Positions 19,935-60,342 of a DNA stretch of 64,000 nucleotides are shown here, one piece after another. The position numbers were made by a program, and so were the translations under genes. This DNA comes from Anaerolineae bacterium (GTDB lineage: Bacteria; Chloroflexota; Anaerolineae; Fen-1058). The notes beneath the pieces were generated by a model. The model was not told the origin of the DNA and made no database searches. It worked only from the letters and a program-made list of their open reading frames with translations. How positions within the stretch are numbered: position 1 is the first letter of the stretch; each line of letters opens with the position of its first letter. The DNA lies in assembly GCA_041300525.1 (NCBI GenBank), contig JBGLNJ010000001.1:748854-812853 (forward strand), given 5' to 3'.

Positions 19935-20033
19935 GGAGTGTCGAATGTCGAGTTCCGAATGTCGAATTTGGAGTTGCACATTTCTCTCATTCGACATTCG
20001 TCAATTGACACTCGACATTCGAGGGGGGTGAGC
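19935..20033. repeat. Inverted heptamer-array hairpin (GTCGAAT/CGAATGT ... CATTCGA units) filling the map-rpmJ spacer where infA normally sits
   Basis: GTCGAATGTCGAGTTCCGAATGTCGAAT ... CATTCGACATTCGTCAATTGACACTCGACATTCG. Its translation forms the spurious N-terminal extension of the rpmJ-frame ORF. Confidence 0.6.
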
Positions 20034-20983: not shown

Positions 20984-21091
20984 CCGATCAGTGATCAGTT
21001 ACTCTGTCAATCAGTTCTCAGTTATGGTTGGCCGAGTGACTGATTGACTGTTTACCGAGTAACTGAGCAACGATTACTATCAGGAGGAAGC
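20984..21091. repeat. Heptamer-periodic intergenic repeat (GATCAGT / ACTGATTGAC / CCGAGTAACTGAGCAAC motifs). It shares the 17-mer CCGAGTGACTGATTGAC with 23174..23254.
   Basis: GATCAGTGATCAGTTACTCTGTCAATCAGTTCTCAGTTATGGTTGGCCGAGTGACTGATTGACTGTTTACCGAGTAACTGAGCAACGATTAC between rpsK and rpsD. Confidence 0.6.
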
Positions 21092-23173: not shown

Positions 23174-23254
23174 GTAGTCAATCAGTCGCTCAACTAATCA
23201 GTAATCGGTGACTGAGTAACTGATTGACTGAGCAACTGATCACCGAGTGACTGA
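23174..23254. repeat. Heptamer-periodic intergenic repeat, second copy of the family seen at 20984..21091
   Basis: GTAGTCAATCAGTCGCTCAACTAATCAGTAATCGGTGACTGAGTAACTGATTGACTGAGCAACTGATCACCGAGTGACTGATTGACC. Confidence 0.6.
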
Positions 23255-23992
23255 TTGACCAGGTATAAAGCGACCATCGCGTATGACGGGACGGACTATC
23301 ACGGCTTTCAGCGCCAGGCTCCAGAGCATGAACCGACGATTCAAGGTGAAATAGAGCGGGCGCTGACCCAGATCGGCCAGCCGGGTGTCACCATCCTGGG
23401 CAGCGGGCGCACAGACGCAGGCGTTCACGCCAGCGGTCAAGTGATTGCGTTTAGCGCCGAATGGCGGCACAGCCGGCAAGACTTGCAACGCGCGCTCAAC
23501 GCGACACTCCCGGCGGACATTGCCGTGCTGGACCTGGACGAAGCGGCTTGCGATTTTCACCCGCGTTACGACGCGGTGAGCCGCGAGTACGTTTACACGA
23601 TTTACAATGCGCCTGTGCGGCATCCGCTTTACCGGTTGAACGCGCTGCACATCGCCGATCTACTCGATGTGAAAGCGATGGATGCAGCGGCGGCAGAGCT
23701 GGTAGGCGAGCATGACTTTGCCGCCTTTGGCCTTCCGACGGCAGGAGATGTCACCGTCCGGCGGATGCTGCGAGCGGAATGTCGAGCCGAGTTGCCGTTG
23801 GTGCGGCTGGAACTGGAAGCGAATGGCTTTCTGTACCGCATGGTGCGCAGCATTGCTGGGACGCTGCTCCTGGTAGGGCGGGGCGAGATGACGCGGGATC
23901 AGTTTCGCGCCGTGATGGAATCGCGCGACCGTTCCCGCGCTGGCGCGCCGGTTCCGCCGCAAGGGTTGTGTCTGACGCGCGTGAACTATTGA
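23255..23992 (+). CDS. truA: tRNA pseudouridine(38-40) synthase TruA
   Basis: ...YKATIAYDGTDYHGFQRQ..., including the catalytic Asp region; TTG start. Confidence 0.85.
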   Translation: MTRYKATIAYDGTDYHGFQRQAPEHEPTIQGEIERALTQIGQPGVTILGSGRTDAGVHASGQVIAFSAEWRHSRQDLQRALNATLPADIAVLDLDEAACDFHPRYDAVSREYVYTIYNAPVRHPLYRLNALHIADLLDVKAMDAAAAELVGEHDFAAFGLPTAGDVTVRRMLRAECRAELPLVRLELEANGFLYRMVRSIAGTLLLVGRGEMTRDQFRAVMESRDRSRAGAPVPPQGLCLTRVNY

Positions 23993-33527: not shown

Positions 33528-34355
33528 TCACATCTCCGACGGCACGACGATAAACACCTTCTTGGCCGTGTCGTACTCGACCAGAATCACTTCGGTATCG
33601 CGCGGGATGGCGGGCTTGCCCGGATCAACCACGGCGAACACGGTGATGAGCGTGCCGCCCACATCGCGCAGCTTGACCTGGCCGTACTTTTCGTCCACCT
33701 GCGGGCTGACGACATACCCGCGCCGGCTCACCAGCCGCTTGACCGAGGTGGCCGTGCTGGAAAAGGCCGGCACCGCACGACCGATGAATACCGCCACGCG
33801 CGAAGTCAACAAGAATGCAAGGAACAAGTCCAAAAGTAAAACGACAACCAGCGCCCAACCGGGATAGGGACGGAATACGCCAACCACAGAGGCATTGGCA
33901 ATCCAGCCCAAAATTCCAAACCCGCCCAGCAATACCAGCAGAATCATGGTTACGGGCGCCTGACCCACGCCCAGGAATTGCAGCGCCCCCGCCCACGCGG
34001 GCAGGCTTCCCGCGTCGTGGCTTACGTCGTGGTCCACATCGTGGTCAACATCGTGATCCATATCGTGGCCCAGGTCGGCGTCGTGCTCCACGGCGAGGTC
34101 GTGGTCTACCGCCACATCGTGATCTAGGGCGAGGTCGTGATCCACGGCAAGATCGTGATCTAGAGCGAGGTCATGCTCCAGGCTGACGTCGTGATCCAGG
34201 TCAACGTGAACATCTGCGTCGGCATCGGCATCGTGATCTTGTTCCAGGCCGAGGAACTGTAAAGCCGAAAGACCGAGGAAGGCCAGGAGCGCCAACGTGA
34301 ACGGGATATTGTACCAGGCGGTGGCGAATGTCCACAGGTCAACGAGAGCTTTCAC
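33528..34355 (-). CDS. NfeD-like (YuaF-type) membrane protein with C-terminal OB-fold and an inserted His-Asp hexapeptide repeat tract
   Basis: GTG start after RBS AAGGAAAAAG (VKALVDLWTF...). HD-repeat DHDADADADVHVDLDHDVSLEHDLALDHDLAVDHDLALDHDVAVDHDLAVEHDADLGHDMDHDVDHDVDHDVSHD. C-terminal NfeD OB-fold (GYVVSPQVDEKYGQVKLRDVGGTLITVFAVV...VEYDTAKKVFIVVP). Confidence 0.65.
   Translation of the reverse strand: MKALVDLWTFATAWYNIPFTLALLAFLGLSALQFLGLEQDHDADADADVHVDLDHDVSLEHDLALDHDLAVDHDLALDHDVAVDHDLAVEHDADLGHDMDHDVDHDVDHDVSHDAGSLPAWAGALQFLGVGQAPVTMILLVLLGGFGILGWIANASVVGVFRPYPGWALVVVLLLDLFLAFLLTSRVAVFIGRAVPAFSSTATSVKRLVSRRGYVVSPQVDEKYGQVKLRDVGGTLITVFAVVDPGKPAIPRDTEVILVEYDTAKKVFIVVPSEM
33990..34240 (-). 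repeat. In-frame ~18-nt tandem repeat encoding (D-H-D-[LV]-A-[LV])n
   Basis: DNA periodicity GGCGAGGTCGTGATCCAC / GGCAAGATCGTGATCTAG / AGCGAGGTCATGCTCCAG on the plus strand. Confidence 0.6.
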
Positions 34356-37512: not shown

Positions 37513-38817
37513 CTACTTGCCGAACGTGATCCGGTAGATAACCCCGCCCTTGTCGTCGCTAACCATCAAGCTGCCGTCCGGCGCGACGGCCAACCCCACG
37601 GGCCGCCCCGAAACCTGACCGCCCTTCAGCCAACCTGTGGCAAAGTCCTTCACCAGCCCGGGGGGCTTGTCGCCGTCGAGCGGCACAAACACCACCTTGT
37701 AACCGGTGGGCACGCTGCGATTCCATGAGCCGTGGAACGCAATGAACAAGCCGTTGCGATATTCGGATGGGAACTGTGCGCCGGCGTAAAACGCCAACCC
37801 CAGCGGGGCCGAGTGTGCCTGCATTTCGACGACCGGCTTGGCGACGCCATCGCACGCGCCGGGATTGCCAAATTCGGGGTCAATGATGCGCCCACTGTGA
37901 CAGCGCGGCCATCCGGCGTCCAGGCCGTCTTTGACGATGTAGATCGTTTCGGGCGGGTTGTCGTCGCCGAGCCAGTCGCGTCCCATGCCGGTGGCCCATA
38001 GCTCGCCGGTGCGCGGATTGATCGCCAAGCCAACGGCATTCCGCAATCCGCGCGCGAACACGCGCCCATTCTTGCCGTCCACATCGTATACCATCACAGC
38101 AGCGCGGCGCTCGTCTTTTTCAATACACACGTTGCAGCTCGACCCGATCGAAACGTACAGCTCGCCCGTGGGGCCAAACAACACGGTGCGTGTGTTGTGA
38201 CCACCGGACGGCAGGCCATCAATCACTACACTCCGCTTGATGGCGCGATGCGTGATGGGATCAAGCTCGAGCCGCGTGATGCGCGTCGTCTCGCCGACAT
38301 ACAGCGAACCATCCGATGCGAATGCCAGTGAGGACGGCGCGATGAGATTCTCGGCCACGACGATGGGCGCATCGGCCACGCCATCGTCGTTGGCATCCAC
38401 CAATGCCACAATCCTGTTGGCTCCACGCTCGGCCACATACAACACGCCATCCGGCCCATAGGTCATAAAGCGCGGCCCGTTGAGCCGGGCAAAGAGAGTA
38501 GCGCGAAAACCGGACGGCAGTTGCACATCGGTTGCGATAGGAGCACGATTGACCGGCGTCGGCTTGGGCAAGGCTGTGGCCGTCGGTGAAACGGCTGGAG
38601 GTGGAGACACGACGAGTGGCGTTGACGTGGCAGGTGGAGTTGGTGCGCTAGTTGGCGGTAAGCTCACAAGCGGCAAAGTAGCAGGCGAAATTGGCGTACC
38701 AGTCGGCGGCACGCTCGCGATTGGCGCGGCCTTACATGCCGCCACCAAACACATCAGCAAGACAGCGCCGACACACCCGAGTCGACACCTCCTCACAGGT
38801 CTCCATTCATCATTCAA
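37513..38817 (-). CDS. PQQ-dependent sugar (glucose/sorbosone) dehydrogenase family lipoprotein
   Basis: Lipobox LLMCLVAAC, Pro/Thr/Ser linker, six-bladed propeller motifs (GPDGVLYVAERGANRIVAL; GPDGSLMVSDDKGGVIYR). Annotated start is inside a heptamer repeat; the likely true start is the GTG at ~38796. Confidence 0.75.
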   Translation of the reverse strand: MNDEWRPVRRCRLGCVGAVLLMCLVAACKAAPIASVPPTGTPISPATLPLVSLPPTSAPTPPATSTPLVVSPPPAVSPTATALPKPTPVNRAPIATDVQLPSGFRATLFARLNGPRFMTYGPDGVLYVAERGANRIVALVDANDDGVADAPIVVAENLIAPSSLAFASDGSLYVGETTRITRLELDPITHRAIKRSVVIDGLPSGGHNTRTVLFGPTGELYVSIGSSCNVCIEKDERRAAVMVYDVDGKNGRVFARGLRNAVGLAINPRTGELWATGMGRDWLGDDNPPETIYIVKDGLDAGWPRCHSGRIIDPEFGNPGACDGVAKPVVEMQAHSAPLGLAFYAGAQFPSEYRNGLFIAFHGSWNRSVPTGYKVVFVPLDGDKPPGLVKDFATGWLKGGQVSGRPVGLAVAPDGSLMVSDDKGGVIYRITFGK

Positions 38818-38851
38818 TATTCGTCACTCGTCACTCGACATTCGTCATTCA
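38797..38851. repeat. Heptamer tandem array (CATTCAT CATTCAA TATTCGT CACTCGT CACTCGA CATTCGT CATTCAT) between the acyl-CoA dehydrogenase stop and the PQQ-DH start
   Basis: Read directly from the sequence. The ORF's MNDEW start is encoded by GAATGAT GAATGGA units. Confidence 0.6.
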
Positions 38852-40576
38852 TCAAAACGGGCTGGCCAGAACAACGTCTCTGACTTGCAGCGGCGTTGGA
38901 TCGGCGGCCTGAATCGCCGCGGCCGCGCCTCGCACCTTGGGCAAATGCTCGGCGATGTAGACGTGAGCCATCGCCCGCTTCCTGTCTGAGGCGCGCGCGT
39001 CTCGCAGCAGCAGCCACGAGTTGACCACATACGCCGCCATGTCCATCACGTCGGAAGCGTAATACTCGATCACGGGCGTGTCACACTCTTTCAAGTGATC
39101 GGCGCACCGGTTGAAAAGTGCGGTCGCGTCCATCACCTGATTCTTGAGCGGGGCCAGCTCCAGGCCATAGTCCTGCGCGGCCCAGTCGTTCAACAAGTCG
39201 TCGAGCGCGTGGCCCAACAACTTGCCGATGACGGCGACCACTTGCATTTGGCTGGTGCCCTCATAAATGTTCGTCACGCGAACGTCGCGGTAATGGCGCT
39301 CCACATTAAACTCGCGCATGTAACCGACGCCGCCATGAACTTGCATCGCCTGGTAACAGACGCGGTTGCCCATCTCGGTGGCATAATACTTGGTCAGCGG
39401 CGTCAGGGTTTCGGCCAGCTTGCTGGCCCGCTTGAGGCGCGCTCGATCCGCCGGGTCCGGCTTGGCGCTTTCGGCGATGCGCCGGTCGTAGGCCTTTTCC
39501 AAATCCACCCAGCGCCCGGCTTCGCAAACCAACGCCCGCACCGACTCGATCTCACTCCGCATCGTCAGGAGCATACGAGTCACAGCCGGCAGGTTGCGAA
39601 TGGCCTGATTGAACTGGACACGCTCGTGAGCATAGCGGTGCGCTTCGCGATAGGCGGCTTCGGCAATGCCCAGCGCCTGGGCCGATACCGCCAGCCGCGC
39701 GCCGTTCATCAACCCCATCGCATAACGAATCAGTCCCATGCGCCGCTTGCCGATCAACTGCGCCGGCGTGTTGTTGTACTGGATTTCGCACGTCGGCGAA
39801 GCGTGCAGGCCGACTTTGTTTTCGATGCGGCGGATCTGAACCGTCTCGTCCTTTTCCACCAGGAACAGCGAAAGGCCGCGTGGATCGGTCGTGCCCTCTT
39901 CGCTCCGGGCCAGCACCACCATAATCTCGGCGCAGCCGTTGGTGATGAAGCGCTTGACGCCGTTGATGCGCCACACGCCGGCCGCCTCGTCAAACGTGGC
40001 GCGCGTCTGCACCGATCCCAAATCGGACCCGGCGTCCGGCTCGGTGAGCACCATCGCGCCCGCCACCTCGCCGCGGGCAAAACGAGGCAACACGCGCGCT
40101 TTCATCTCTTCGCTGCCAAACTCGCTGATGGACGAGGCGATCTCTTGCAGCCCGAAAACCGTCATCAGCCCGGCCTCGGCGCGCGAGACGATCTCGACCA
40201 TCATCTGGTAGATCGTCTCCGGCAAGTTCATCCCGCCGTATTCCCACGGCAGCATTATCCCCATCAGCTCGGCCTGCTTGAGCGCCTTGAGCGCGTCTTG
40301 AGTGGCAGCCGAGTAACGCACCTGGCCTGCCTCGAAATGCGCGCCCTCTTCATCCGCTTCCGCCGCGCGCGGAGCGACCACCGTCGCGCAGATTTCGCCG
40401 AGCACTTTTAACAGGATGCCGTAATTATCTTTGGCGTCCTCATAGTGACGCGGCGCGGAGGGATACTTTTCTCGATAGGTGTAACCCTTTTCTCGAATTT
40501 CGACGACCTCGCGCAAGTCGGTCCTATCCAGATAAAACTGAAGGTCAAGGTTATCCAGGAAAAAATTTTCGGCCAT
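38852..40576 (-). CDS. Acyl-CoA dehydrogenase family protein (long, ~570 aa)
   Basis: ACAD N, middle and C-terminal domain motifs (GGMNLPETIYQMMVEI...; YEGTSQMQ). Confidence 0.85.
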   Translation of the reverse strand: MAENFFLDNLDLQFYLDRTDLREVVEIREKGYTYREKYPSAPRHYEDAKDNYGILLKVLGEICATVVAPRAAEADEEGAHFEAGQVRYSAATQDALKALKQAELMGIMLPWEYGGMNLPETIYQMMVEIVSRAEAGLMTVFGLQEIASSISEFGSEEMKARVLPRFARGEVAGAMVLTEPDAGSDLGSVQTRATFDEAAGVWRINGVKRFITNGCAEIMVVLARSEEGTTDPRGLSLFLVEKDETVQIRRIENKVGLHASPTCEIQYNNTPAQLIGKRRMGLIRYAMGLMNGARLAVSAQALGIAEAAYREAHRYAHERVQFNQAIRNLPAVTRMLLTMRSEIESVRALVCEAGRWVDLEKAYDRRIAESAKPDPADRARLKRASKLAETLTPLTKYYATEMGNRVCYQAMQVHGGVGYMREFNVERHYRDVRVTNIYEGTSQMQVVAVIGKLLGHALDDLLNDWAAQDYGLELAPLKNQVMDATALFNRCADHLKECDTPVIEYYASDVMDMAAYVVNSWLLLRDARASDRKRAMAHVYIAEHLPKVRGAAAAIQAADPTPLQVRDVVLASPF

Positions 40577-46386: not shown

Positions 46387-46461
46387 TGCGTACTGCGTGC
46401 TGCGTAATGAAACACGGAATACGCAGTACGCAATACGTAGCACGAAGCACATTCTAATTCG
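46387..46461. repeat. Inverted heptamer-array hairpin (TGCGTAC TGCGTGC TGCGTAA ... ACGCAGT ACGCAAT ACGTAGC ACG), copy 1, flanking the GT2 gene
   Basis: Begins inside the TAA stop of the upstream gene. Perfect 12-nt arms TGCGTACTGCGT / ACGCAGTACGCA. Confidence 0.65.
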
Positions 46462-47421: not shown

Positions 47422-47500
47422 CGTACTTCGTACTGCGTAATGCATAACGGGACAGAGCACAAAGTACGCAGTACGAAACACGTAGCACGTCTGCTACCTG
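47422..47500. repeat. Inverted heptamer-array hairpin, copy 2 (CGTACTT CGTACTG CGTAATG ... TACGCAG TACGAAA CACGTAGCACG), in direct orientation relative to copy 1
   Basis: Shares ...GTACTGCGTAATG... and ...ACGCAGTACG.AA.ACGTAGCACG with copy 1. It also begins inside the upstream TAA stop. Confidence 0.65.
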
Positions 47501-50033: not shown

Positions 50034-50060
50034 GTGCTAGAATATCGGCGAAGGAGTAAG

Positions 50061-50357
50061 ATGTCTACGCAAGTAACTTATGTGACCATTCCTGTGTCGC
50101 CTGAAATCATTGAACAACTCCCGCCTGACCCGATAACGCGGGAGCAAGTTCTGGGACTCGGCCTGCGGCAATGGCGGATTCGCCAGGCGTTGGAAGATTA
50201 CCGGCAAGGGCGTGGCACACTAGCCTATGCCGCCGAACGGGCTGGCGTCTCGATACGCGAGATCACCCCACTGGCATACGCCTATGGCCTAACGCCCTCA
50301 GTTGATCCTGACTGGCTCTCCGATACCCTCACACTCGACCAGGCTTTGCAACTATGA
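50061..50357 (+). CDS. UPF0175-family antitoxin-like protein
   Basis: RBS AAGGAG; ...RIRQALEDYRQGRGTLAYAAERAGVSIREITPLAYAYGL..., typical of UPF0175. Confidence 0.6.
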   Translation: MSTQVTYVTIPVSPEIIEQLPPDPITREQVLGLGLRQWRIRQALEDYRQGRGTLAYAAERAGVSIREITPLAYAYGLTPSVDPDWLSDTLTLDQALQL

Positions 50358-50875
50358 TCGCCGTTGCCGACACCGGCCCGTTGCTCGCGCTGGCGAAAGT
50401 CAATGCTCTGGATTTGCTTGCGCATCTCTTTCAGCAAGCTGTCATAACACCCGCTGTGTTCACCGAAGCGATCACCGCCGGTTTGGCTCAGAACGCGCCG
50501 GATGCTTACATCTTGGAAGCTGCTGTCAAAAATGGCCGATTGCAAATGCGCGTTCCCAAGCCGCTCGCGCTTCCTCGCCCTGCTTTCATTCATCGCGGCG
50601 AAGAGGAAAGTATTCGTTTGGCCATTGAACTGGCTGCCGATTGTTTGCTGGTGGACGATCTCGATGCGCGGCGCGCAGCTATAGACAACTTTGCAGCGGC
50701 AGGTGTGTCTACCTCGGTCAAGGGCACACTTGGCGTGATTGTGACCACTTATCAGCAAAAGTATCTGGCGCGAGAACAAGCGGTGGATTTAGTGAATGCT
50801 CTCAAGGCTCGCCCTGATATCTGGATCAGCAGGAAATTGTGTGATCAGGTGATTCGCACAATCCAAAAATACTAG
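50354..50875 (+). CDS. DUF3368 PIN-like nuclease toxin
   Basis: MIAVADTGPLLALAKVNALDLL... DUF3368 signature. 4-nt overlap with the upstream antitoxin gene. Confidence 0.65.
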   Translation: MIAVADTGPLLALAKVNALDLLAHLFQQAVITPAVFTEAITAGLAQNAPDAYILEAAVKNGRLQMRVPKPLALPRPAFIHRGEEESIRLAIELAADCLLVDDLDARRAAIDNFAAAGVSTSVKGTLGVIVTTYQQKYLAREQAVDLVNALKARPDIWISRKLCDQVIRTIQKY

Positions 50876-50969: not shown

Positions 50970-52589
50970 TTAGCGCACGAGCGACAGCGCCACCTGGCCG
51001 AGCAGCGCCAACACGCCCAGTCCCATGAGCGCGTACACCGCAAACTGGGCCAGCGGGTATACCCAGGACGTGACTTTTTGCCCATCGTCCAGTACCAGCT
51101 CCCGCAGCTCGAATACCGGTTGCGGCACGCGACGGAACCATCCCCGCGCCACGCCACTTTGGCCCACAAATTTTTCGGCGCGCAACAAGCCGAACAGAAA
51201 CTCGAACAGCCGCCACGGCTGGCGATAGTCCAGCACGATAAATCCGCTGGAATCTTGCAGGACGAGGTCTTTGCTATAGAACAGTCCCGGCACGCCTCGC
51301 CCGATCACGCGCCCTCGGAGCGTGCCCGGCGCCGCGCGCACTCGGCTTACTTTCACCTCGCCGACCAAGCCCTTGATCTCGCGTTCGGGTGAAAGGTCGG
51401 GCGGGTACATAAAGCGGCGCTGGAGCCACCAGGTCACGCTCCACACCAGCAGGCCCGCGCCCACGCCCGCCAGCGGCAGGCTGAGCAGCACGCCCGCGCC
51501 GGCCAGCGCCAAGCCCATCACAAAGCCGATCCAGGCAAGTTGGTTGACCGCCAGATCAACCAGGAACTCGCCCCAGTAGCTTTCCGTCTGCACTTCGCGA
51601 AAGGCGAACGACGGCGCTCGGCCTTGCGCTTCGCATTGCTTTTCCAGCGCCTTGATGCGCTTGGCCGGCAGCGGGTGGCTGGACGATAGCTCGTACCAAC
51701 CCGCCCACGGATTCCACAAGTCCCACTTCATGGCTTCTGTCATGGACGCCGCCGACAGGTTGCCCGTGCCGGCTCCGGTCAATGCCAGCACGTTGGCGAC
51801 TCGGGGGTCAAAGATGCCAAAGGCGCGCGCAGCCTGCATGCGCACATCGTTCTTGGCTTCGCCGGACTCGGGCGCGCGCGCCAGGCCATAAGCGATCTTG
51901 ACCAAGCCGGTTGCCAGCGCGTCGGGGTTGCCCGTCACTTCTCCGGCGAAGCGGTCGGCGTAATACTCGCGCACGCGGCTGAGGAGCAGCACAATGAACT
52001 GGCTGACCACGTAAGCGACGTACGCCAGCAGCCCGGCGAGCGCAATGTAGCCGCCGCTCCTGCGCGAACGGCCGCTCCCGCGCGTGGCAAACCACAGCGT
52101 ATACAGCACCAACGGCGCCACTGCCGCCACCGTCATTACCACAAAATCCCAGTGCGCGATGTGGCCCATCTCGTGGCCCACGACCGCCTGCACCTCTTGA
52201 GGGTCGAGCATTTGCAGCAGCCCGCGCGTGACGACCAATCGCGCGTTGCCCGGATAGTGCCCGAAGGTAAAGGCATTCGGATTGCCGTCGTCAATCACGC
52301 CAAAACGCGGTTGAGGGATATTGCGCTCTTGGCACGTGCGCGCGATGAAAGCTGCCAGTTGGGGATTGAATTGCGCGGGGTCCGTCCATTGAATCTTGTA
52401 AATCCATTGCAGGATGAACGGCCCTAGCGCATATTGCAATGCCAGCACGATTACGGCGAACGGCACGGCCAGCCAGACCGGCAGCCCCGTCGCCAGCAGC
52501 GCCATGATGCCAACCGCAAACACCAGCCCGAACAACAAGGTCAGCACGATAACGGAACGGATAGCTAAATTGACCATTGTGCCTCCCAA
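50970..52589 (-). CDS. M48-family Zn metallopeptidase (HtpX/Oma1-like), multi-TM, with extended C-terminal region
   Basis: HEMGHIAHWD HExxH motif; multiple TM segments; 539 aa; TTG start. Confidence 0.75.
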   Translation of the reverse strand: MGGTMVNLAIRSVIVLTLLFGLVFAVGIMALLATGLPVWLAVPFAVIVLALQYALGPFILQWIYKIQWTDPAQFNPQLAAFIARTCQERNIPQPRFGVIDDGNPNAFTFGHYPGNARLVVTRGLLQMLDPQEVQAVVGHEMGHIAHWDFVVMTVAAVAPLVLYTLWFATRGSGRSRRSGGYIALAGLLAYVAYVVSQFIVLLLSRVREYYADRFAGEVTGNPDALATGLVKIAYGLARAPESGEAKNDVRMQAARAFGIFDPRVANVLALTGAGTGNLSAASMTEAMKWDLWNPWAGWYELSSSHPLPAKRIKALEKQCEAQGRAPSFAFREVQTESYWGEFLVDLAVNQLAWIGFVMGLALAGAGVLLSLPLAGVGAGLLVWSVTWWLQRRFMYPPDLSPEREIKGLVGEVKVSRVRAAPGTLRGRVIGRGVPGLFYSKDLVLQDSSGFIVLDYRQPWRLFEFLFGLLRAEKFVGQSGVARGWFRRVPQPVFELRELVLDDGQKVTSWVYPLAQFAVYALMGLGVLALLGQVALSLVR

Positions 52590-52596
52590 TCCGTAC

Positions 52597-52702
52597 TCAA
52601 TGTCATTAAGATAAGCGTAGCATAGCCCCTTGTGGGCGTCTTTCCAAGCGCGGAAACGGGCACAAGGCCCTACGCTACGGCCCTAACTTAACGACAGTCA
52701 AT
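52597..52702. repeat. ~100-bp repeat element, copy A (inverted relative to copy B at 56587..56690)
   Basis: TCAATGTCATTAAGATAAGCGTAGCATAGCCCCTTGTGGGCGTCTTTCCAAGCGCGGAAACGGGCACAAGGCCCTACGCTACGGCCCTAACTTAACGACAGTCAAT. Its reverse complement matches copy B with ~1 mismatch over ~97 nt. Confidence 0.8.
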
Positions 52703-52949
52703 AGCGTATTTGCAGGGTTTCATTGGGGCTCCTCACATAATGTACGGATAGCAAGGAGCCAATTATACCGTCGGATTACTTTTGAGACACGGTAGTAGTA
52801 GCGTCTGCCATGCAAAACATGACACGCGCCCGTATCGAATCGCTGCATCATGCGCTTGACAGTACCATCAGAGTGTGGTATCTTTCGGGCCGTCAGCAGC
52901 ACATTGAGAATATAACCTAAAGACGTTGAATCGGACGAGTAACCGTCGG

Positions 52950-53303
52950 GCGGATTTCAGAGAGTCGGTGGAGGTGGTGAGACACCGATATTCCAAAAGG
53001 CGGCGAATGGACCGAGGAGTCGCAAGGGCAAACGGTGGGGCGGCATCCTGATGCCGCCGCCAAGTAGCCCAAGCCGGAAATCGCCCCCGTTATCGCGGCA
53101 GAAGGTATCGAGAACATTTCTCCGTACCTGCAAGAGTGGGACTGGCTCGCGTTTCGTTTCATACGGACGCGATTTTTGTTTATCGAGCGAGGACGACCAG
53201 TCTCAATAGGGTGGCACCACGGGAGCAAGGTTATTCATAACCAACCTCTCGTCCCTTTGGATGCGCAGAATTCTGCGGGCACAAGGGGACGAGAGGTTTT
53301 TTA
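52950..53303 (+). ncRNA. T-box riboswitch leader (probable tRNA-Trp specificity) with intrinsic terminator, upstream of trpE
   Basis: T-box core AATAGGGTGGCACCACGGG (~53204-53222). Terminator CCTCTCGTCCC...GGGACGAGAGG-TTTTTTATT (53245-53303). Upstream AGAGA motif and a candidate specifier GAAUGGA (UGG = Trp codon). Confidence 0.55.
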
Positions 53304-53365
53304 TTCTCCCTTCTTCCTTGTAGGGAGAAGGGCGGCCCACAGTAGTGGGCAGGGGGATGAGCGTG

Positions 53366-54853
53366 ATGTACCAACCGACCTATTCCGAATTTGAGGCGCT
53401 GGCCGCGCGCGGCAATTTGATTCCGGTCTATCGTGAGATCAACGTGGATTTGGAGACGCCTGTGTCAGTCTATTTGAAATTGCGCGGCGAGGGCAAATCG
53501 TTCCTGCTCGAATCGGTCGAGGGCGGCGAGCAACTGGCGCGCTATTCGTTCCTCGGCGTGAATCCCGCGCGGGTGCTGACGCTGCGCGGCGACCAAGTGA
53601 CGATTCGTAATCACGCGCGCGTCGAACAGTTTTCGCTCGACGGGCGTGACCCGCTGGAGGCGTTGCGGGGATTCCTCGCGCCGTATCAATCGCTGCCGGT
53701 GGCAGCGCGCAGCGTGCCGCGCTTTTTCGGCGGCGCGGTCGGGTATCTCGCTTACGACATCGTGCGCCACATCGAGCGACTGCCCAACACCGCGCGCGAT
53801 GAGCTTGATCTCCCCGATGCGATGTTTCTGTTGGCGGACACCGTCATCGCCTTCGACCACGTCAAGCATCGCGCGCTCGTCATCGCCAATGCGCATGTTG
53901 AGGGTAACCCGAGCGCCGCTTACGACGACGCGGTGGCGCGCATCGAGCACCTCATCGCGCGCTTGAATCAGCCGATGCCGAAGCCTTCTCCTGCGCCCTC
54001 CCGCAATGGTCACGCTCTCGAATCGAACGTTTCGCCGGAGCAGTACGCGCAGAGGGTGGAGCGCGCGAAGGAATACATCGCCGCCGGCGACATTTTCCAG
54101 GTCGTCCTTTCGCAGCGGTTTGGGCGTGAGACGCGCGCAGACGCCTTTTCGATTTACCGCGCGCTGCGGCGTTTGAACCCGTCGCTGTACATGTTCTTTT
54201 TGGACTTGCGCGAAATGCAGTTTATCGGCTCGTCCCCCGAAGTCCTGGTGCGGCTCGAAGACGGCCTGGCGCAGCTCAACCCCATCGCTGGGACGCGCCC
54301 GCGCGGCGCAGACGAGGCCGCCGACGCCCGCCTTGAAGAAGAACTGCGCGTGGATCCGAAAGAGCGCGCGGAGCACGTCATGCTGGTGGATTTGGGACGC
54401 AACGATTTGGGGCGCGTGTGCGAGTACGGCTCGGTGCAGGTGCCCGATTTCATGACCGTCGAAAGATACTCGCACGTGATGCACCTCGTCTCACGCGTCA
54501 CCGGCAAGCTGCGCGCCGAGTTGGACGGGTTCGACTTGCTCCGCGCGACCTTTCCCGCCGGGACCGTTTCCGGCGCGCCCAAAGTCCGCGCGATGGAGAT
54601 CATTGAAGAACTCGAAGGCACGCGGCGTGGGCCGTATGCGGGCGCGGTCGGCTATCTGGGATTCCCCGTCGCCGGCAAGGGCAATATGGATTTTTGTATC
54701 ACGATTCGCACCATCGTTCAACGCGGGCCACAGGCGTTCATCCAGGCCGGCGCGGGCATCGTGGCCGATTCCGATCCGATGCGCGAGCATCAAGAGTGCG
54801 TGAACAAGGCCCGCGCCCTGGCCGAAGCGATCCGATTGGCGGAAGAAGGCTAG
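53366..54853 (+). CDS. trpE: Anthranilate synthase component I
   Basis: Chorismate-binding-enzyme C-terminal motifs (GAVGYLGF...G..DFCITIRT) and N-terminal Trp-feedback region (LLESVEGGE). Confidence 0.9.
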   Translation: MYQPTYSEFEALAARGNLIPVYREINVDLETPVSVYLKLRGEGKSFLLESVEGGEQLARYSFLGVNPARVLTLRGDQVTIRNHARVEQFSLDGRDPLEALRGFLAPYQSLPVAARSVPRFFGGAVGYLAYDIVRHIERLPNTARDELDLPDAMFLLADTVIAFDHVKHRALVIANAHVEGNPSAAYDDAVARIEHLIARLNQPMPKPSPAPSRNGHALESNVSPEQYAQRVERAKEYIAAGDIFQVVLSQRFGRETRADAFSIYRALRRLNPSLYMFFLDLREMQFIGSSPEVLVRLEDGLAQLNPIAGTRPRGADEAADARLEEELRVDPKERAEHVMLVDLGRNDLGRVCEYGSVQVPDFMTVERYSHVMHLVSRVTGKLRAELDGFDLLRATFPAGTVSGAPKVRAMEIIEELEGTRRGPYAGAVGYLGFPVAGKGNMDFCITIRTIVQRGPQAFIQAGAGIVADSDPMREHQECVNKARALAEAIRLAEEG

Positions 54854-54944
54854 GTTTTTCTCCGCGAATCACGCGAATCCCCGCCAATCTTTCTGATTCG
54901 CGCCCATTCGCGTTATTCGCGGAAAAAGATATGGAGGCTAACCC

Positions 54945-55517
54945 ATGATTCTCGTCATAGACAATTACGATTCTTTCACCTACAACCTCGTCCAGTACCT
55001 GGGCGAGCTGGGCGCGGAGCTGCGCGTCTTTCGCAACGACGCCGTGACGCCGGACGAGATCAAGCGACTCTCGCCCTCACACATCGTCATTTCTCCTGGC
55101 CCCGGCGGCCCAGGCGACGGCGGCATCTCGACCGGCGTCATCCGCGAGTTTCATCGTGACGTGCCCCTCCTGGGCGTGTGCCTGGGACACCAGTGCATCG
55201 GACACGTGTTCGGCGGCGTGGTGGGACGCGCGCCGCGTTTGATGCACGGCAAAACCTCGGCGGTTTATCACGATGGGCGCGGCGTCTTTGAAGGCGTACC
55301 GAGTCCGTTCGAGGCGGGCCGTTATCACTCGCTCATCGTCCAGGAACCGCTGCCGGACGAATTGCGCGTCACGGCCTTTACCAAGGAAGGCGAAGTGATG
55401 GGCCTTCGCCACAAGCGTTATCCGCTCGAAGGAGTGCAGTTTCACCCTGAGAGTGTGCTGACCAGATTCGGCAAACAGATCCTCAAAAACTTTTTAGACT
55501 ATGGAGGCCAAGCGTGA
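54945..55517 (+). CDS. trpG: Anthranilate synthase component II / glutamine amidotransferase (TrpG/PabA type)
   Basis: [23 protein letters not shown]...; catalytic GVCLGHQ. Confidence 0.9.
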
Positions 55518-56536
55518 TCCGCGAATCAATCGCCAAACTGATGGATGATCAGAACCTGACACTCGCCGAAGCCGAAAGTGTGATGAACGAGATCATGGAC
55601 GGCTTGGCGACACACGCGCAGATGGCGGCGTTCCTGACGGCGCTGCGTTTGAAAGGCGAGACGGTGGACGAGATCACCGGCTGCGCGAAGGTGATGCGCG
55701 ACAAAGCGGTGGCGGTCCAGCCGACCCGTACGGATCTGGTGGACACGGCCGGCACGGGCGGCGACGGCGCGGACACGTTCAACATTTCCACGACGGCCGC
55801 ATTCGTCATCGCCGGCGCGGGACTGGGCGTGGCCAAGCACGGCAATCGGGCCGTGTCGAGCCAGAGTGGCAGCGCGGATGTGCTCGAGGCGCTCGGCGTG
55901 AACCTCGATCTGACGCCGGTCCAGGTGGCACGGTGCATTGACGAGATCGGCCTCGGGTTTTTGTTCGCCCAAAAGCTGCACCCCGCGATGAAGAACGTCG
56001 CGCCGGTCCGCAAAGAACTCGGCATCCGCACCATCTTTAACATCCTCGGCCCGCTGACGAATCCCGCGCGCACGCCCGCGCAGATCGTGGGCGTGTACGA
56101 CGCGCGGCTCACGACGACGATGGCGCACGTTTTGCACGCGCTCGGCGCGCGCGCCGCATTTGTGTTTCACAGCGAGGACGGCCTGGACGAGCTCACGACG
56201 ACGGGCATTAACCAAGTCGCACGTTTTGACAACGGCACGGTTTACGAAGGGGAACTGGATGCGTGCGCGTTGGGGCTGGCGCGCGCCTCGCGCGCCGACT
56301 TGCGTGGCGGTCGCCCCGATCAGAACGCGCAGACCACCCAGAACGTCCTCTCCGGCGCAGAGTGCGGTCCCAAGCGCGACGTGGTGGCGTTGAACGCGGC
56401 GGCGGCACTTGTCGCCGGCGGCAAGGCGCGTGACCTCCGGGAAGGTCTCGAACGCGCGAGCGATTCAATGGATTCAGGCGGGGCCATGCGCGTACTGGAT
56501 GGCCTGGTGGCGTTGAGCAACAGTTTTAGATTGTAG
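55514..56536 (+). CDS. trpD: Anthranilate phosphoribosyltransferase
   Basis: ...[22 protein letters not shown]...; 340 aa. Confidence 0.9.
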
Positions 56537-56586
56537 ATTTCAGGTTGCAGATTTTAGATTAGCCGTCCCATTCTAACAATCCGCAA

Positions 56587-56690
56587 TTCAATGTCGTTAA
56601 GTTAGGGCCGTAGCGTAGGGCCTTGTGCCCGTTTCCGCGCTTGGAAAGACGCCCACAAGGGGCTATGCTACGCTTATCTTGATGACATTG
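56587..56690. repeat. ~100-bp repeat element, copy B (inverted relative to copy A), between trpD and trpC
   Basis: ATTCAATGTCGTTAAGTTAGGGCCGTAGCGTAGGGCCTTGTGCCCGTTTCCGCGCTTGGAAAGACGCCCACAAGGGGCTATGCTACGCTTATCTTGATGACATTGA. Confidence 0.8.
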
Positions 56691-56716
56691 ATCCGCAATT
56701 TAGGATCGGAAATCCA

Positions 56717-57529
56717 ATGATTCTTGATGACATTACCGCAAACACGCGCGCCGAGGTAACCGAGCGGCGTCGGCGTGTTCCACTTGCAGACATGCGCGCC
56801 CGCGCGGAATTGGCGCCGCCCGCGCGAGATTTTGAAAGCGTGCTCAAACACGAGCACGTCGCGCTGATTGCCGAAGTCAAATGGGCATCGCCTTCGCGCG
56901 GCGCGCTGCGCGCCGAGTTGGACCCGGCACAACTGGCGCGCGTCTATGCCAAGAGCGGCGCATCTGCCATTTCGGTCTTGACCGACGCCAAGTATTTCCA
57001 CGGCAGCCTGGCCGACCTGGAAGGCGCGCGCGCAGCGGTTGACGTGCCGGCGCTGCGCAAGGATTTCGTCGTGGACGAGTACCAGCTTTACGAAGCGCGC
57101 GCGCACCGGGCTGACGCGGCCCTCCTCATCGCGCGGATTCTGTCGGATGCCCAACTGCGCGATTACCTCGCGCTGGCGCGTTCGCTCGGCTTGGGCGCGC
57201 TGACCGAAGTTCACGATGAGGCGGAACTCGACCGCGCGCTGGCGGCGGAGGCGCGCATCATCGGCATCAACAATCGCAACCTGGCTGATTTTACCGTTAG
57301 CCTGGCGACGACAGAGCGGCTCGCGCCGCGCATCCCGCCCGGAAAAATCATCGTGGCTGAGAGCGCCATCTTTACCCGTGCAGATGTTGAGCGTGTCGCG
57401 CGAGCGGGCGCGCACGCGGCGCTCGTCGGTGAAGCCTTGATGCGCGCGGGAGACGTGGGGGCGAAAGTCAAGGAACTGTGCCAGGTCGCGTTTTGCCTCC
57501 TGCACCTTGCGCCCTGCGATTTGAGTTGA
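56717..57529 (+). CDS. trpC: Indole-3-glycerol phosphate synthase
   Basis: ...ALIAEVKWASPSRG...; 270 aa. Confidence 0.9.
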   Translation: MILDDITANTRAEVTERRRRVPLADMRARAELAPPARDFESVLKHEHVALIAEVKWASPSRGALRAELDPAQLARVYAKSGASAISVLTDAKYFHGSLADLEGARAAVDVPALRKDFVVDEYQLYEARAHRADAALLIARILSDAQLRDYLALARSLGLGALTEVHDEAELDRALAAEARIIGINNRNLADFTVSLATTERLAPRIPPGKIIVAESAIFTRADVERVARAGAHAALVGEALMRAGDVGAKVKELCQVAFCLLHLAPCDLS

Positions 57530-57535
57530 ACCAAT

Positions 57536-58264
57536 ATGACCTACGTCAAAATCTGCGGCATCACGAATCTGGACGACGCACTGGCAGCGGCAGAGGCGGG
57601 CGCAGACCTGTTGGGCTTTGTGTTCTTTTCCCGCTCGCCGCGCTGCATTGACCTGGAACGCGCGGGCGAAATCGTCGCGGCGCTCAAGCGGCGTGGCAAC
57701 GCTCTGCGTTTTGTCGGCGTGTTTGTGAACGAGCCGCTTGAGCGGGTGCGCGCGATTGCGGCGACCGCCCAACTCGATGTGGCGCAACTGCACGGCGACG
57801 AATCGCCGGAGATGGTGAGTGACTTGTCATCGCTCGGAGTTGAAACTCTGAGCTGCAAAACGACGCCGGATCAATCCGGCTTCCCAGCCTCATTCATGGG
57901 GCGCGGTAGATTGATCGCCGTGCGAGCATTGCGCCCGCGCCATGAAGCCGAGGCGCAGGCACAGGTGGAAGAGTATCGCGCTGCGGTGAACGGGAACGTG
58001 CCCGCGTTCATCGTGGACGCCTTTGACACGCAGCGATTCGGCGGGACCGGCGCGCGCGCCGATTGGGACATTGCCGCGCGAATCGCGCGCGAGTTCCCCA
58101 TCTTGTTGGCAGGTGGTTTGAATGTGGACAACGTCACGGAAGCCATTCGTGTCGTCCGACCCTGGGGCGTAGATGTGTCGTCCGGCGTCGAGCGCGCGCC
58201 GGGACTCAAAGACCAAGATAGAGTACGGCAGTTTGTTCGAGCGGCGAAAGGCGCACGTGGATGA
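57536..58264 (+). CDS. trpF: Phosphoribosylanthranilate isomerase (slightly extended, 242 aa)
   Basis: MTYVKICGITNLDDALAAAEAGADLLGFVF... Confidence 0.85.
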   Translation: MTYVKICGITNLDDALAAAEAGADLLGFVFFSRSPRCIDLERAGEIVAALKRRGNALRFVGVFVNEPLERVRAIAATAQLDVAQLHGDESPEMVSDLSSLGVETLSCKTTPDQSGFPASFMGRGRLIAVRALRPRHEAEAQAQVEEYRAAVNGNVPAFIVDAFDTQRFGGTGARADWDIAARIAREFPILLAGGLNVDNVTEAIRVVRPWGVDVSSGVERAPGLKDQDRVRQFVRAAKGARG

Positions 58265-58318
58265 GGCGAAAGACGGGGGAAGAAAACTCTGATCCTTCGT
58301 CGGGAATTGCGAGGTGAC

Positions 58319-59494
58319 ATGAACGGACGATTCGGACCTTATGGGGGCCAGTTTGTCCCCGAAACACTGATGCCTGTGCTGGCAGAGTTGGAAGAATCGC
58401 TCAATGCGGCGCTGGCCGATCAAGAATTCTGCGCGCAACTGGCCGACCTGGCCGCGCATTACTCGGGCCGGCCCACGCCGCTCTATTTTGCGCGGCGGCT
58501 GACGGAATATTGCGGCGGCGCGAAAATCTATCTCAAGCGTGAAGACCTGGCCCACACCGGCGCGCATAAAATCAACAACGCGCTCGGACAAGGGTTGCTG
58601 GCGCGGCGTATGGGCAAGGCGCGCATCGTGGCGGAAACAGGCGCGGGACAGCACGGCGTCGCGTCGGCGGCAGTGTGCGCGATGCTCGGCCTTCAGTGCG
58701 TCGTCTACATGGGCACGGAAGACATGCGCCGTCAAGCGCCGAATGTGTTTCGCATGAAATTGCTGGGCGCCGAGGTGCGCCCGGTGGATGGCGGCAGCGC
58801 CACACTCAAGGATGCCATCAACGAAGCCATCCGCGATTGGGTGACGAACGTCCGCGACACGCATTACCTGCTCGGCTCCGCGCTCGGCCCGCATCCTTAT
58901 CCGATCATGGTGCGCGAATTTCAATCCGTCATCGGCCACGAGGCGCGCGCGCAAATCCTGGACGCGGAAGGCCGGCTGCCGGATTTGCTCATCGCGTGCG
59001 TCGGCGGCGGGTCGAATGCTATCGGTTTGTTTGATGCTTTCCGCGACGACGACGTCGCCCTGCTCGGCGTCGAGGCGGGCGGATTGGGGATTGCCTCAGG
59101 CCAGCACGCGGCGCGGTTTGCCGAGGCGCGGCCTGGCGTGTTGCAGGGGACGTACACCTACGTCTTGCAAGACGACGACGGTCAGATTCGCGGCACGCAC
59201 TCGGTTTCGGCCGGGTTGGACTATGCCGCCGTCGGCCCGGAGCACGCTTACTTGCGCGACACCGAGCGCTCGGGTTACACCTATGCCACCGACGATGAGG
59301 CGCTCAACGCGTTCGCCAAGCTGTCGCAGATCGAAGGCATCATCCCTGCGCTCGAATCGGCGCATGCAGTGGCGGAGACGATCAAGCGAGCGCCTATGAT
59401 GAAGCGCGACCAGATTATCCTGGTGAATTTATCGGGGCGCGGCGACAAGGACTTGCAGACCGTTATGGATGCTGGAATGGCGAATGACGAATGA
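58319..59494 (+). CDS. trpB: Tryptophan synthase beta subunit
   Basis: [18 protein letters not shown]...; PLP-binding [10 protein letters not shown]-terminal MANDE* is encoded by a heptamer repeat. Confidence 0.9.
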
Positions 59495-59540
59495 CGAAGG
59501 CATAGTTCATCTTTCGTCGTTCGTCCTTCGTCAGTCTTGA
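59474..59540. repeat. Inverted heptamer-array hairpin (GAATGGC GAATGAC GAATGAC GAAGG ... CTTTCGTCGTTCGTCCTTCGTC) spanning the trpB stop
   Basis: Read directly from the sequence; the TGA stop lies within the GAATGAC unit. Confidence 0.6.
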
Positions 59541-59550
59541 TAGGAGAGGC

Positions 59551-60342
59551 ATGAGCCGATTAGACGAAACTTTCGCCCGATTGAAAACGGAACGTCGCGC
59601 GGCGTTGATGCCATACCTGCCGCTCGGATTCCCGACGCTGGACGTGTCTCGGCAACTGATTCGCGCGGCAGCCGACGCGGGCGCAGATGTCATTGAACTG
59701 GGCGTCCCTTTCAGCGACCCGTTGGCGGACGGCCCGGTGATTCAACGCGCCACATACGCCGCGCTGCAAAACGGCATGACGCTGGCGGAATGTTTCGAGA
59801 TGGCGCGTAAAGCGCGCCAGGCGGGCGTGACGGTTCCTCTCGTCTTGATGGGCTATTACAATCCCATCTTGCGATTCGGCGTCGAAGCATGCGCGCGCGC
59901 AGCGCAAGACGCGGGCGCGGACGGCTTTATCGTGCCGGATTTGCCGCCTGAAGAAGCGGGCGCGTTGGACGCAGCCTGCCGTGCCCGTGAACTCGATTTG
60001 ATTTTTCTGGCCGCGCCGACGAGCACGGCTGAACGATTGCGCCTCATCGCTGAGGCGACGCGCGGGTTCATGTACCTGGTGTCCGTCGTCGGCGTCACGG
60101 GCGCGCGAGAGCGGATGGCCGCCGACCTCACCGAATTTGTGGCGCGCGTGCGGACCGCCACGACGAAACCGGTGTGCGTGGGCTTTGGCATCGCCAACGC
60201 AGAGACGGCGCGAGCCGTCGCCGGATGCGCGGACGGCGTGATCGTGGGCAGCGCGCTCGTCTCGCGGATTGGGGAAGCCGAGCACGCAGTTCGTGCGGCT
60301 CAACAGTTCATCGCAGAATTGCGCGCGGCGATAGATGCTTGA
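59551..60342 (+). CDS. trpA: Tryptophan synthase alpha subunit
   Basis: ...ELGVPFSDPLADGPVIQ... Confidence 0.9.
   Translation: MSRLDETFARLKTERRAALMPYLPLGFPTLDVSRQLIRAAADAGADVIELGVPFSDPLADGPVIQRATYAALQNGMTLAECFEMARKARQAGVTVPLVLMGYYNPILRFGVEACARAAQDAGADGFIVPDLPPEEAGALDAACRARELDLIFLAAPTSTAERLRLIAEATRGFMYLVSVVGVTGARERMAADLTEFVARVRTATTKPVCVGFGIANAETARAVAGCADGVIVGSALVSRIGEAEHAVRAAQQFIAELRAAIDA

Follow-up and report, generated by a model that had tools for sequence, protein, structure and literature searches.

The trp locus of this Anaerolineae bacterium raises the question of how its T-box leader and first three structural genes came to be bracketed by near-perfect inverted repeats of about 100 bp, and what such an arrangement means for the operon. 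We analysed these repeats within a 64-kb stretch of DNA, referred to here as the window. A repeat search of the window identified the two arms (52597-52710 and 56578-56691) as one inverted pair of 114 nt, 96% complementary and separated by a gap of 3867 nt, and this pair was the longest repeat present. A core 31-mer had two exact matches in the window, with none expected from 100 shuffles. The inverted repeats reported by the initial annotation are therefore real. Pairwise alignment showed that the two copies, A and B, are identical over a core of about 87 nt (52611-52697). The complete element is 102 bp long with the termini CAATGTC...GACATTG, its length being fixed by 10 complete copies, and over this length copies A and B show three differences, one at element position 10 (T/C) and the others at the right end, where the last bases are GACAGTC in copy A and GACATTG in copy B. 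The previous estimate of about one mismatch over about 97 nt was thus nearly right, and the previous coordinates were off by only 1-3 nt. The element limits are 52598-52699 for copy A (plus strand in the left-to-right orientation of the model; alignment and nhmmer, 119 bits) and 56589-56690 for copy B (minus strand in model orientation; alignment, folding and nhmmer, 119.7 bits). Each copy had been described as containing internal palindromes and TTAAG-type ends. The self-complementarity was borne out, but each copy forms one long imperfect hairpin rather than several palindromes, with the whole element folding back on itself through 38-41 pairs, and the TTAAG motif sits 9-13 nt inside the CAATGTC/GACATTG termini.

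The content of the enclosed segment was as first described. To the left of copy A lies a gene for an M48/HtpX-type membrane metalloprotease (50970..52577, minus strand; 535-aa homologues at 92% identity and 100% coverage), with its ATG 20 nt away from the copy A left tip. Copy A occupies the divergent region between this gene and the trp promoter. A consensus promoter scan detected a promoter-like site, TTGACA-17-TATCTT (52856..52884, plus strand), before the T-box leader (52917..53304, plus strand), which was recognised by Rfam RF00230, the repeat search and its sequence and which ends in a terminator/antiterminator hairpin (53237-53304) followed by a T-run. The RF00230 match (52917-53259) scored 89.4 bits with an E of 3e-19, under the Rfam gathering score of 93, and a UGG (Trp) specifier at 53008-53010 was read from the covariance-model alignment. 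Homology of the trp leader with relatives begins at 52840, and the leader plus promoter is 86% identical. Gene annotation placed trpE (53345-54853), trpG (54945-55517) and trpD (55514-56536) between the two copies, and trpC, trpF, trpB and trpA (56717..60342) beyond copy B, all on the plus strand. The trpC ATG is 26 nt past the end of copy B. Since the candidate trp promoter lies to the right of copy A, copy A is outside the trp transcript.

The best overall explanation, which we hold with high confidence, is that each arm is an independent copy of a non-autonomous MITE of 102 bp. Scans of species-representative genomes and JGI metagenomes with 20-22-mers of the core returned 16 loci. The element is present with >90% identity at 15 of them, which belong to MAGs of Anaerolineae and Thermoflexales or to metagenome contigs. 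Within the window, an nhmmer profile found two copies only. By an ORF/GC3 heuristic, all family copies are apparently intergenic. Metagenome contigs often end at or within the element, as expected of a multi-copy repeat. Plasmid, phage and viral-contig collections contained no match to the element or to its tips. At locus L001, a related hairpin that shares the inner stem of the element occurs by itself, in tandem, between ruvC and ruvA.

Among the 10 complete copies with both flanks, perfect 10-bp direct repeats bordered five and a repeat of 9/10 identity bordered one, while three were without a duplication, namely copy A and two copies on possibly chimeric metagenome contigs. The five perfect duplications (GGGCAAAGAC, AGGTCACACT, ATGCTATAAT, ACTCAGGGGT and ATCCGCAATT) are unrelated in sequence, which ruled out the flanking 10-mers being part of the element or a fixed target. 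The copy A flanks, the copy B duplication and the duplication at locus L002 share a loose likeness, AAT.GCG.ATT, which could reflect a weak target preference or simple-sequence spacers. The element combines a small, non-coding size with terminal inverted repeats (tips CAATGTCATTAAG / CTTAACGACATTG), duplications of fixed length and variable sequence, and empty orthologous sites, the features of a MITE; the target-site duplications across family copies from other genomes make the original term "MITE-like" correct.

At 102 bp the element is too short to encode a transposase, and the varied 10-bp duplications at different sites indicate that it was moved by a DDE transposase. We infer that this was most likely an enzyme of the IS4 family, members of which produce duplications of about 10 bp (PMC2266710). 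Ends of the IS4 subgroup follow the consensus -AATR--------WTW- with direct repeats of 10-13 bp, and those of IS231 the consensus CAT-------AA--TAA with direct repeats of 10-12 bp (PMC2266710, Table 1). When compared with these published consensus sequences, as opposed to actual IS sequences, the tips CAATGTCATTAAGATAAG and CAATGTCGTTAAGTTAGG matched the IS4-subgroup consensus at all 7 specified positions and largely fitted that of IS231. Isolated element tips were absent from the window and from 26 loci, and searches with core and tip patterns found no autonomous partner with matching tips in the window, the 26 loci or viral contigs, so the proposed IS4-family mobilisation is drawn from the resemblance of tips and duplications.

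Copy B, between trpD and trpC, is flanked by ATCCGCAATT on its left (56579..56588) and on its right (56691..56700), with 10/10 identity between the two, and the trpC ATG follows 16 nt past this duplication. As copy B has its own intact duplication on both sides, it inserted by itself; it landed in the short trpD-trpC spacer, duplicating ATCCGCAATT. Copy B is presumably transcribed, forming a long stem-loop within the T-box-controlled trpEGDCFBA mRNA without terminating it. Its plus strand folded at -56.9 kcal/mol (z -6.9) over 131 nt including flanks. The copy B tip plus duplication (TCTTGATGACATTGATCCGCAA) resembles the trpC start (TCTTGATGACATTACCGCAA), and a duplication or conversion was considered. 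L017 lacks the MITE yet its trpC starts in the same way, and this idea was therefore rejected.

Comparison with relatives identified empty sites at both positions. The trpD-trpC spacer is without the element in L017 and L018 (TrpC 84-90% identical) and also in L020/L021, and the region upstream of M48 is without it in L022/L023 (92%), L024 and L026. These relatives, at 81-92% protein identity, have spacers too diverged for the exact single-copy target 10-mer to be recognised. A profile search of the 68 kb of loci L017-L026 detected the element in L019, the same-strain MAG GCA_041300535.1, only. The element-free relatives keep the gene order, with trpEGD and trpCFBA adjoining. On this comparison, we judge that the insertions at both sites are recent and lineage-specific.

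Copy A differs from copy B in its surroundings. Its left tip is CAATGTCATTAAG, and its right tip is mutated. Its flanks, AATCCGTACT (52588-52597) and AATAGCGTAT (52700-52709), match at 4/10 with no recognisable duplication; by eye they match at about 8/11 if two indels are allowed, which blurs the argument from the missing duplication. The copy A site is also the exact break in gene order relative to three relatives, in which the order runs from the Peripla_BP_6 side to M48 on the same strand and the trp genes are absent. No homologue of the relatives' Peripla_BP_6-side neighbour was found anywhere in the 64-kb window. PMC11708052 treats a missing duplication as an accepted indication that copies have recombined or that an adjacent deletion has occurred. 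The missing duplication, the damaged tip and the break in gene order together suggest that copy A marks an older rearrangement, its flanks probably having been exchanged through recombination with a further copy of the element or altered by a rearrangement next to it. If MITE-MITE recombination took place at copy A, the reciprocal halves would be AGTACGGATT-type sequence or a Peripla_BP_6 neighbour of M48.

We also weighed the possibility that the hairpin has been recruited to act at the RNA level, as a structure within the operon or in a 5'-UTR serving as an RNase III site or a 3'-exonuclease barrier. On this reading, which we regard as unlikely, the element would make the trpEGD and trpCFBA portions of the mRNA unequal in stability and would also adjust the expression of M48. 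Both copies in the window have the same orientation to the next gene (M48 and trpC, respectively) at about 20-30 nt from its start codon, and the RNA of the co-directional strand forms a much more stable structure than its complement (-51.7 against -36.3 kcal/mol for copy B over the 102 bp of the element, without flanks). Wherever the stem is imperfect, the pairing is G.U on the strand read in the same direction as M48 and trpC, with counts of G.U against the other strand of 3/0 for the family consensus and 5/0 for copy B, including two substitutions of the window lineage. This pattern faintly hints at constraint on the RNA, something not predicted if the element is purely selfish DNA. Furthermore, a relative with 90% identical TrpC has independently gained a different, still stronger hairpin in the same spacer (-86.5 kcal/mol, z -6.1), and a conserved hairpin is also present between trpE and trpG, so stable intercistronic stem-loops recur in the trp operon.

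However, several observations argue against recruitment. Across about 15 family loci, orientation to neighbouring genes was unbiased, and the better-folding strand was not favoured (roughly 8 versus 13 gene-element junctions); this tally is rough, as the neighbouring ORFs were picked by GC3 without homology confirmation. Substitutions between family copies are mostly non-compensatory. The spacers of other relatives, such as L018 (72 nt), are short and free of any hairpin, and the two copies available provide no statistical power. A cmscan against Rfam (E <= 1, 52300-57000, both strands) returned the T-box only, leaving the element without a match. Were recruitment nevertheless correct, the two halves of one T-box-controlled trp transcript would differ in lifetime because of a MITE hairpin.

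The same data bear on the earlier suggestion that the repeats are a duplicated promoter or regulatory element serving both halves of the operon, which was not supported. Beyond the unbiased orientation, the operon of relatives runs element-free and Rfam recognised nothing but the T-box. No consensus promoter was found on the plus strand near copy B, where the only candidates were two weak minus-strand sites aimed back into trpD, so that the coding strand has no consensus promoter leading out of the element. No terminator was recognised either, as a T-run after the hairpin is absent in both copies.

The initial annotation further proposed that recombination between the repeats would invert the segment and uncouple the halves of the operon. 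Homologous recombination between such inverted repeats is known to cause inversions, and with 102-bp copies that differ by 3 mismatches and lie 3.9 kb apart the event is physically possible; the copy A flanks also suggest that family copies have taken part in rearrangements. A net inversion since copy B inserted is contradicted by the locus itself, and we consider it very improbable that the T-box-trpEGD block is an invertible segment. An odd number of exchanges between A and B would split the copy B duplication, yet both halves are intact, and the trpEGDCFBA order is canonical. Together these indicate that the segment still has the orientation it had when copy B inserted. The inverted state would leave trpCFBA without leader and promoter and should be selected against. 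There is no site-specific recombinase gene in the annotated neighbourhood (48.3-60.3 kb). The L019 contig starts just left of copy B, and the possibility that it captured an A-B inversion was rejected as the 34 nt of flank on its left do not match the copy A inner flank in reverse complement.

The remaining proposal, that the two copies and the leader-trpEGD segment moved as one transposed unit, has in its favour that inverted mobile-element copies flank a 3.9-kb cargo, but we give it almost no credence, since copy B carries one and the same 10-mer on its inner and outer sides (56579-56588 = 56691-56700), meaning that B inserted alone, the outer flanks of the pair agree by eye at just 4/10 positions, the element-free relatives keep the two gene blocks contiguous, and the sequence from 52840 onwards retains its homology with theirs.

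With two independent MITE insertions as the preferred reading, the inverted orientation of copies A and B is incidental. The arrangement is the product of an ordinary kind of event and reveals no new regulatory or recombination mechanism. It does illustrate that a stem-loop of about -52 kcal/mol (-57 with flanks) between two cistrons can be tolerated in an essential, T-box-regulated biosynthetic operon. The element is apparently an undescribed MITE family in Anaerolineae/Thermoflexales-type Chloroflexota, a poorly cultured group in which mobile elements are little catalogued; our full-text literature searches turned up nothing on MITEs in Chloroflexota, and the phylum goes unmentioned in a large MITE survey from 2024. 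The element also explains breaks between contigs in MAGs assembled from these organisms, and because relatives have empty sites it is usable as a clean insertion marker for strain typing.

Several known repeat systems resemble this element in part. The Correia elements (CREE) of Neisseria, ERIC of enterobacteria and RUP/BOX of pneumococci are intergenic palindromic repeats of about 100-150 bp, which are often co-transcribed as long stem-loops and are found within operons and at rearrangement breakpoints. The element described here is similarly intergenic, palindromic and about 100 bp in length, and occurs both in an operon and at a break in gene order. Its sequence is unrelated to any of these, and whereas Correia elements duplicate TA and are documented to have outward promoters and IHF sites and to be processed by RNase III, it makes 10-bp duplications. 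MITEs derived from the IS4 family are exemplified by the IS231-derived MIC231 cassettes of the Bacillus cereus group. Like these, the element is small and non-coding, with terminal inverted repeats starting from 5'-CA and varied 10-bp duplications. However, it is an almost full-length hairpin rather than terminal repeats around a cargo, and its hosts are Chloroflexota of the Anaerolineae/Thermoflexales type, while the IS231 subgroup is nearly confined to Firmicutes (PMC2266710). REP/BIME sequences are GTAG-tagged palindromes mobilised by RAYT transposases (PMC3733652). The element shares with them its character as an extragenic palindrome and an inner stem starting GTAGC...GCTAC, but at 102 bp it is longer than REPs, which are 20-40 bp and lack 10-bp target duplications. 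Its terminal inverted repeats and duplications point to mobilisation by a DDE transposase.

A repeat search recovered an inverted pair with arms at 52597-52710 and 56578-56691 (114 nt, 96% complementary, 3867 nt between them). This is the longest repeat of the 64-kb window, and confirms the presence and location of the inverted repeat described in the initial annotation. A core 31-mer had exactly two matches in the window and none in 100 shuffles. Pairwise alignment indicated that the two copies are identical over 52611-52697 and differ at three positions within the element proper, a 102-bp near-palindrome (CAATGTC...GACATTG), and a profile search of the window with family members returned only these copies, A and B.

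Copy A (52598-52699) occupies the divergent interval between an M48/HtpX-type membrane protease gene (50970-52577, minus strand; the start at 52577 is backed by 535-aa homologues aligned over 100% of their length) and the trp promoter, a promoter-like TTGACA-17-TATCTT identified by consensus scan (52856-52884, plus strand). On the same strand follow a T-box leader (52917-53259; RF00230, 89.4 bits, E 3e-19, just below the gathering score of 93), with a specifier that we read from the RF00230 alignment as UGG (53008-53010), its terminator hairpin (53237-53304), and then trpE, trpG, trpD, copy B (56589-56690, in the trpD-trpC spacer), trpC, trpF, trpB and trpA. Since the promoter lies to the right of copy A, copy A is outside the trp transcript and copy B is inside it. 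Two small ORFs lie downstream of the M48 gene (50034-50875), the first of 107 aa and without a Pfam match, the second of 173 aa and matching DUF3368; this pair is absent from the M48 neighbourhoods of relatives and looks like a toxin-antitoxin-type insertion. Elsewhere, 18-nt periodic arrays of six units (34058-34201) and four units (2433-2522) are probably hexapeptide-type repeats within coding sequence.

We searched species-representative genomes and JGI metagenomes with 20-22-mers of the core and obtained 16 loci, 15 of which carried the element at >90% identity, in an Anaerolineae MAG, a Thermoflexales MAG and metagenome contigs. The latter often ended at or within the element, as assemblers stop at multi-copy repeats, and all copies appeared intergenic by an ORF/GC3 heuristic. 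Ten complete copies had both flanks, and in five of these a perfect 10-bp direct repeat, unrelated in sequence from copy to copy, bounded the element (GGGCAAAGAC, AGGTCACACT, ATGCTATAAT, ACTCAGGGGT and, at copy B, ATCCGCAATT). One other had a 9/10 repeat, the copy in the same-strain MAG contig L019 had 6/10, and three including copy A were at chance level (3-4/10). Duplications that keep one length but vary in sequence characterise cut-and-insert movement by DDE transposases. Being 102 bp long and devoid of coding capacity, with duplications of this kind that differ by site, the element is by its sequence features a MITE, and its earlier description as MITE-like was correct. Its tips, CAATGTCATTAAGATAAG and CAATGTCGTTAAGTTAGG, match all seven specified positions of the IS4-subgroup end consensus (-AATR--------WTW-, direct repeats 10-13 bp) and most of the IS231 consensus (CAT-------AA--TAA, direct repeats 10-12 bp) (De Palmenaer et al. 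2008, Table 1, PMC2266710), and IS4-family members generate ~10-bp duplications (PMC2266710). The apparent IS4-family link is one of resemblance to a published consensus rather than of demonstrated parentage; a search for the tips found no autonomous partner in the window, the 26 loci or viral contigs.

Variants of the element were also observed. Between ruvC and ruvA of an Anaerolineae MAG (L001:495-670), two tandem ~90-nt copies of another hairpin have the MITE inner stem GTAGCATAGGGCCTTGTGCCCG...GGCTATGCTAC with a different loop and ends, and a half-MITE follows ruvA; together these hint that palindromes with a GTAGC stem form a wider superfamily. Copies on two different contigs (L001:1281-1378 and L009:1755-1851) break off at one shared internal position and carry the same 14 nt (AAAACCTACAGAAT) in place of the left arm, and so look like a distinct half-element subfamily. 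Another internal variant, GGGCCGCTACGCGAGG, is common to loci L003 and L010.

The presence of the same 10-mer at 56579-56588 and 56691-56700 shows that copy B inserted on its own. Relatives support this insertion being recent and lineage-specific: in L018 (TrpC 84% identical) the trpD-trpC spacer is 72 nt, close to the ~68 nt that remain of the window's spacer once element and duplication are subtracted, the element is absent from this spacer in L020 and L021, and L017 (TrpC 90% identical) has unrelated sequence there. The latter is a ~150-nt near-perfect hairpin (L017:3080-3261; -86.5 kcal/mol, z -6.1), probably another palindromic mobile element, in which case the spacer has been invaded on two independent occasions. 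Several relatives have a TrpC (81-88% identical) that carries a fused GNAT acetyltransferase domain, giving proteins of 411-459 aa (P0005-P0010, L020:8001-9263, L021:4513-5775), and L020 and L021 have an AAA/SMC-like ATPase gene between trpF and trpB. The first trpC codons (56717-56740, ATGATTCTTGATGACATTACCGCAA) closely resemble the copy B tip plus duplication (56676-56700, TCTTGATGACATTGATCCGCAA). This trpC start is also found in the MITE-free L017 and is thus ancestral, and the likeness is either coincidental or a hint that insertion occurs near tip-like sequences. AT-richer degenerate simple-sequence motifs (TAGATTGTAGATTTCAGGTTGCAGATTTTAGATTAG; TCGACATTCG runs; ACGCAGTACGCAATACG) occupy spacers at 56527-56565, 19928-20022, 38810-38858, 46413-46444, 47458-47489, 21018-21050 and 23198-23261 in a genome of otherwise ~61% GC, and may account for the loose likeness among some insertion flanks.

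The history of copy A differs. Its flanks are identical at 4/10 positions, its right tip is GACAGTC, not GACATTG, and it is located exactly where gene order changes relative to relatives. In the M48 loci of L022/L023 (M48 92% identical), L024 and L026, a Peripla_BP_6 gene side lies upstream of M48 on the same strand, with no MITE and no trp genes; this neighbour has no homologue in the whole 64-kb window, and trp-leader homology to relatives starts only at 52840. Missing duplications are a recognised result of inter-copy recombination or adjacent deletion (PMC11708052). On this basis we consider it about as likely as not that copy A is a scar left when a rearrangement placed M48 beside the trp operon. 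The duplication may instead have decayed; the flanks match at ~8/11 positions by eye once two indels are allowed.

On the plus strand copy B forms a single long stem-loop (-56.9 kcal/mol, z -6.9 for 131 nt including flanks; -51.7 kcal/mol for the 102-bp element by itself). As there is no T-run after it, the T-box-controlled transcript should not terminate there. A functional role for the hairpin retains a low probability, on three observations. Copies A and B face the same way toward their downstream genes, ~20-30 nt from the start codon. On the strand co-directional with those genes all imperfect stem positions are G.U (3/0 in the consensus, 5/0 in copy B), against A.C on the opposite strand. 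Strong intercistronic hairpins also recur in the trp operon, one being the hairpin described above for the trpD-trpC spacer of L017. Between trpE and trpG, an inverted repeat of 71 nt (54857-54927; -41 kcal/mol, z -4.5), directly preceding the trpG ribosome-binding site, is near-identical in L018 and at least partial in L017, and is thus a conserved intercistronic stem-loop and not a recent insertion. However, across ~15 loci ~8 junctions between element and neighbouring gene had the better-folding direction and ~13 the other, an unbiased if rough count, with neighbouring ORFs picked by GC3. The consensus scan found no promoter directed out of the element toward trpC or M48, and there was no Rfam match, which together with the unbiased orientation leaves the promoter or regulatory element proposed in the initial annotation unsupported. 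The annotation itself had named many copies without orientation bias as what would speak against its stronger readings and point to just a common MITE, and this is the pattern seen as far as the data reach. The simplest reading is that the insertion is tolerated and essentially neutral.

Inversion by homologous recombination between A and B is physically possible, but gains no support from the duplication pattern: inversion would part the halves of the copy B duplication, yet both are in place, so there has been no net exchange since copy B inserted. L019 (GCA_041300535.1) is 99.9% identical to the window over 7.4 kb, and its first base lies 34 nt to the left of copy B, where L019:1-34 (CTGCAAAGCTAGGCCATAATATCAATCGTCGGTT) differs from window 56555-56588 and occurs nowhere in the window. 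It is not the sequence expected of A-B inversion; this flank may belong to a third copy that the assembler joined here, or may reflect strain heterogeneity or an assembly path. The earlier suggestion of a transposed 3.9-kb segment, as a composite transposon, was rejected, as copy B has its own target duplication and the pair's outer flanks match at 4/10 positions.

Literature searching found no description of MITEs in Chloroflexota, nor did a 2024 survey of prokaryotic MITEs contain one. The element behaves like classic bacterial MITEs, including IS4/IS231-derived cassettes, and resembles Correia, ERIC and RUP elements in being a long transcribed hairpin within operons. It falls outside these named families, as its sequence is unrelated to theirs and Correia elements duplicate TA whereas this element duplicates 10 bp.
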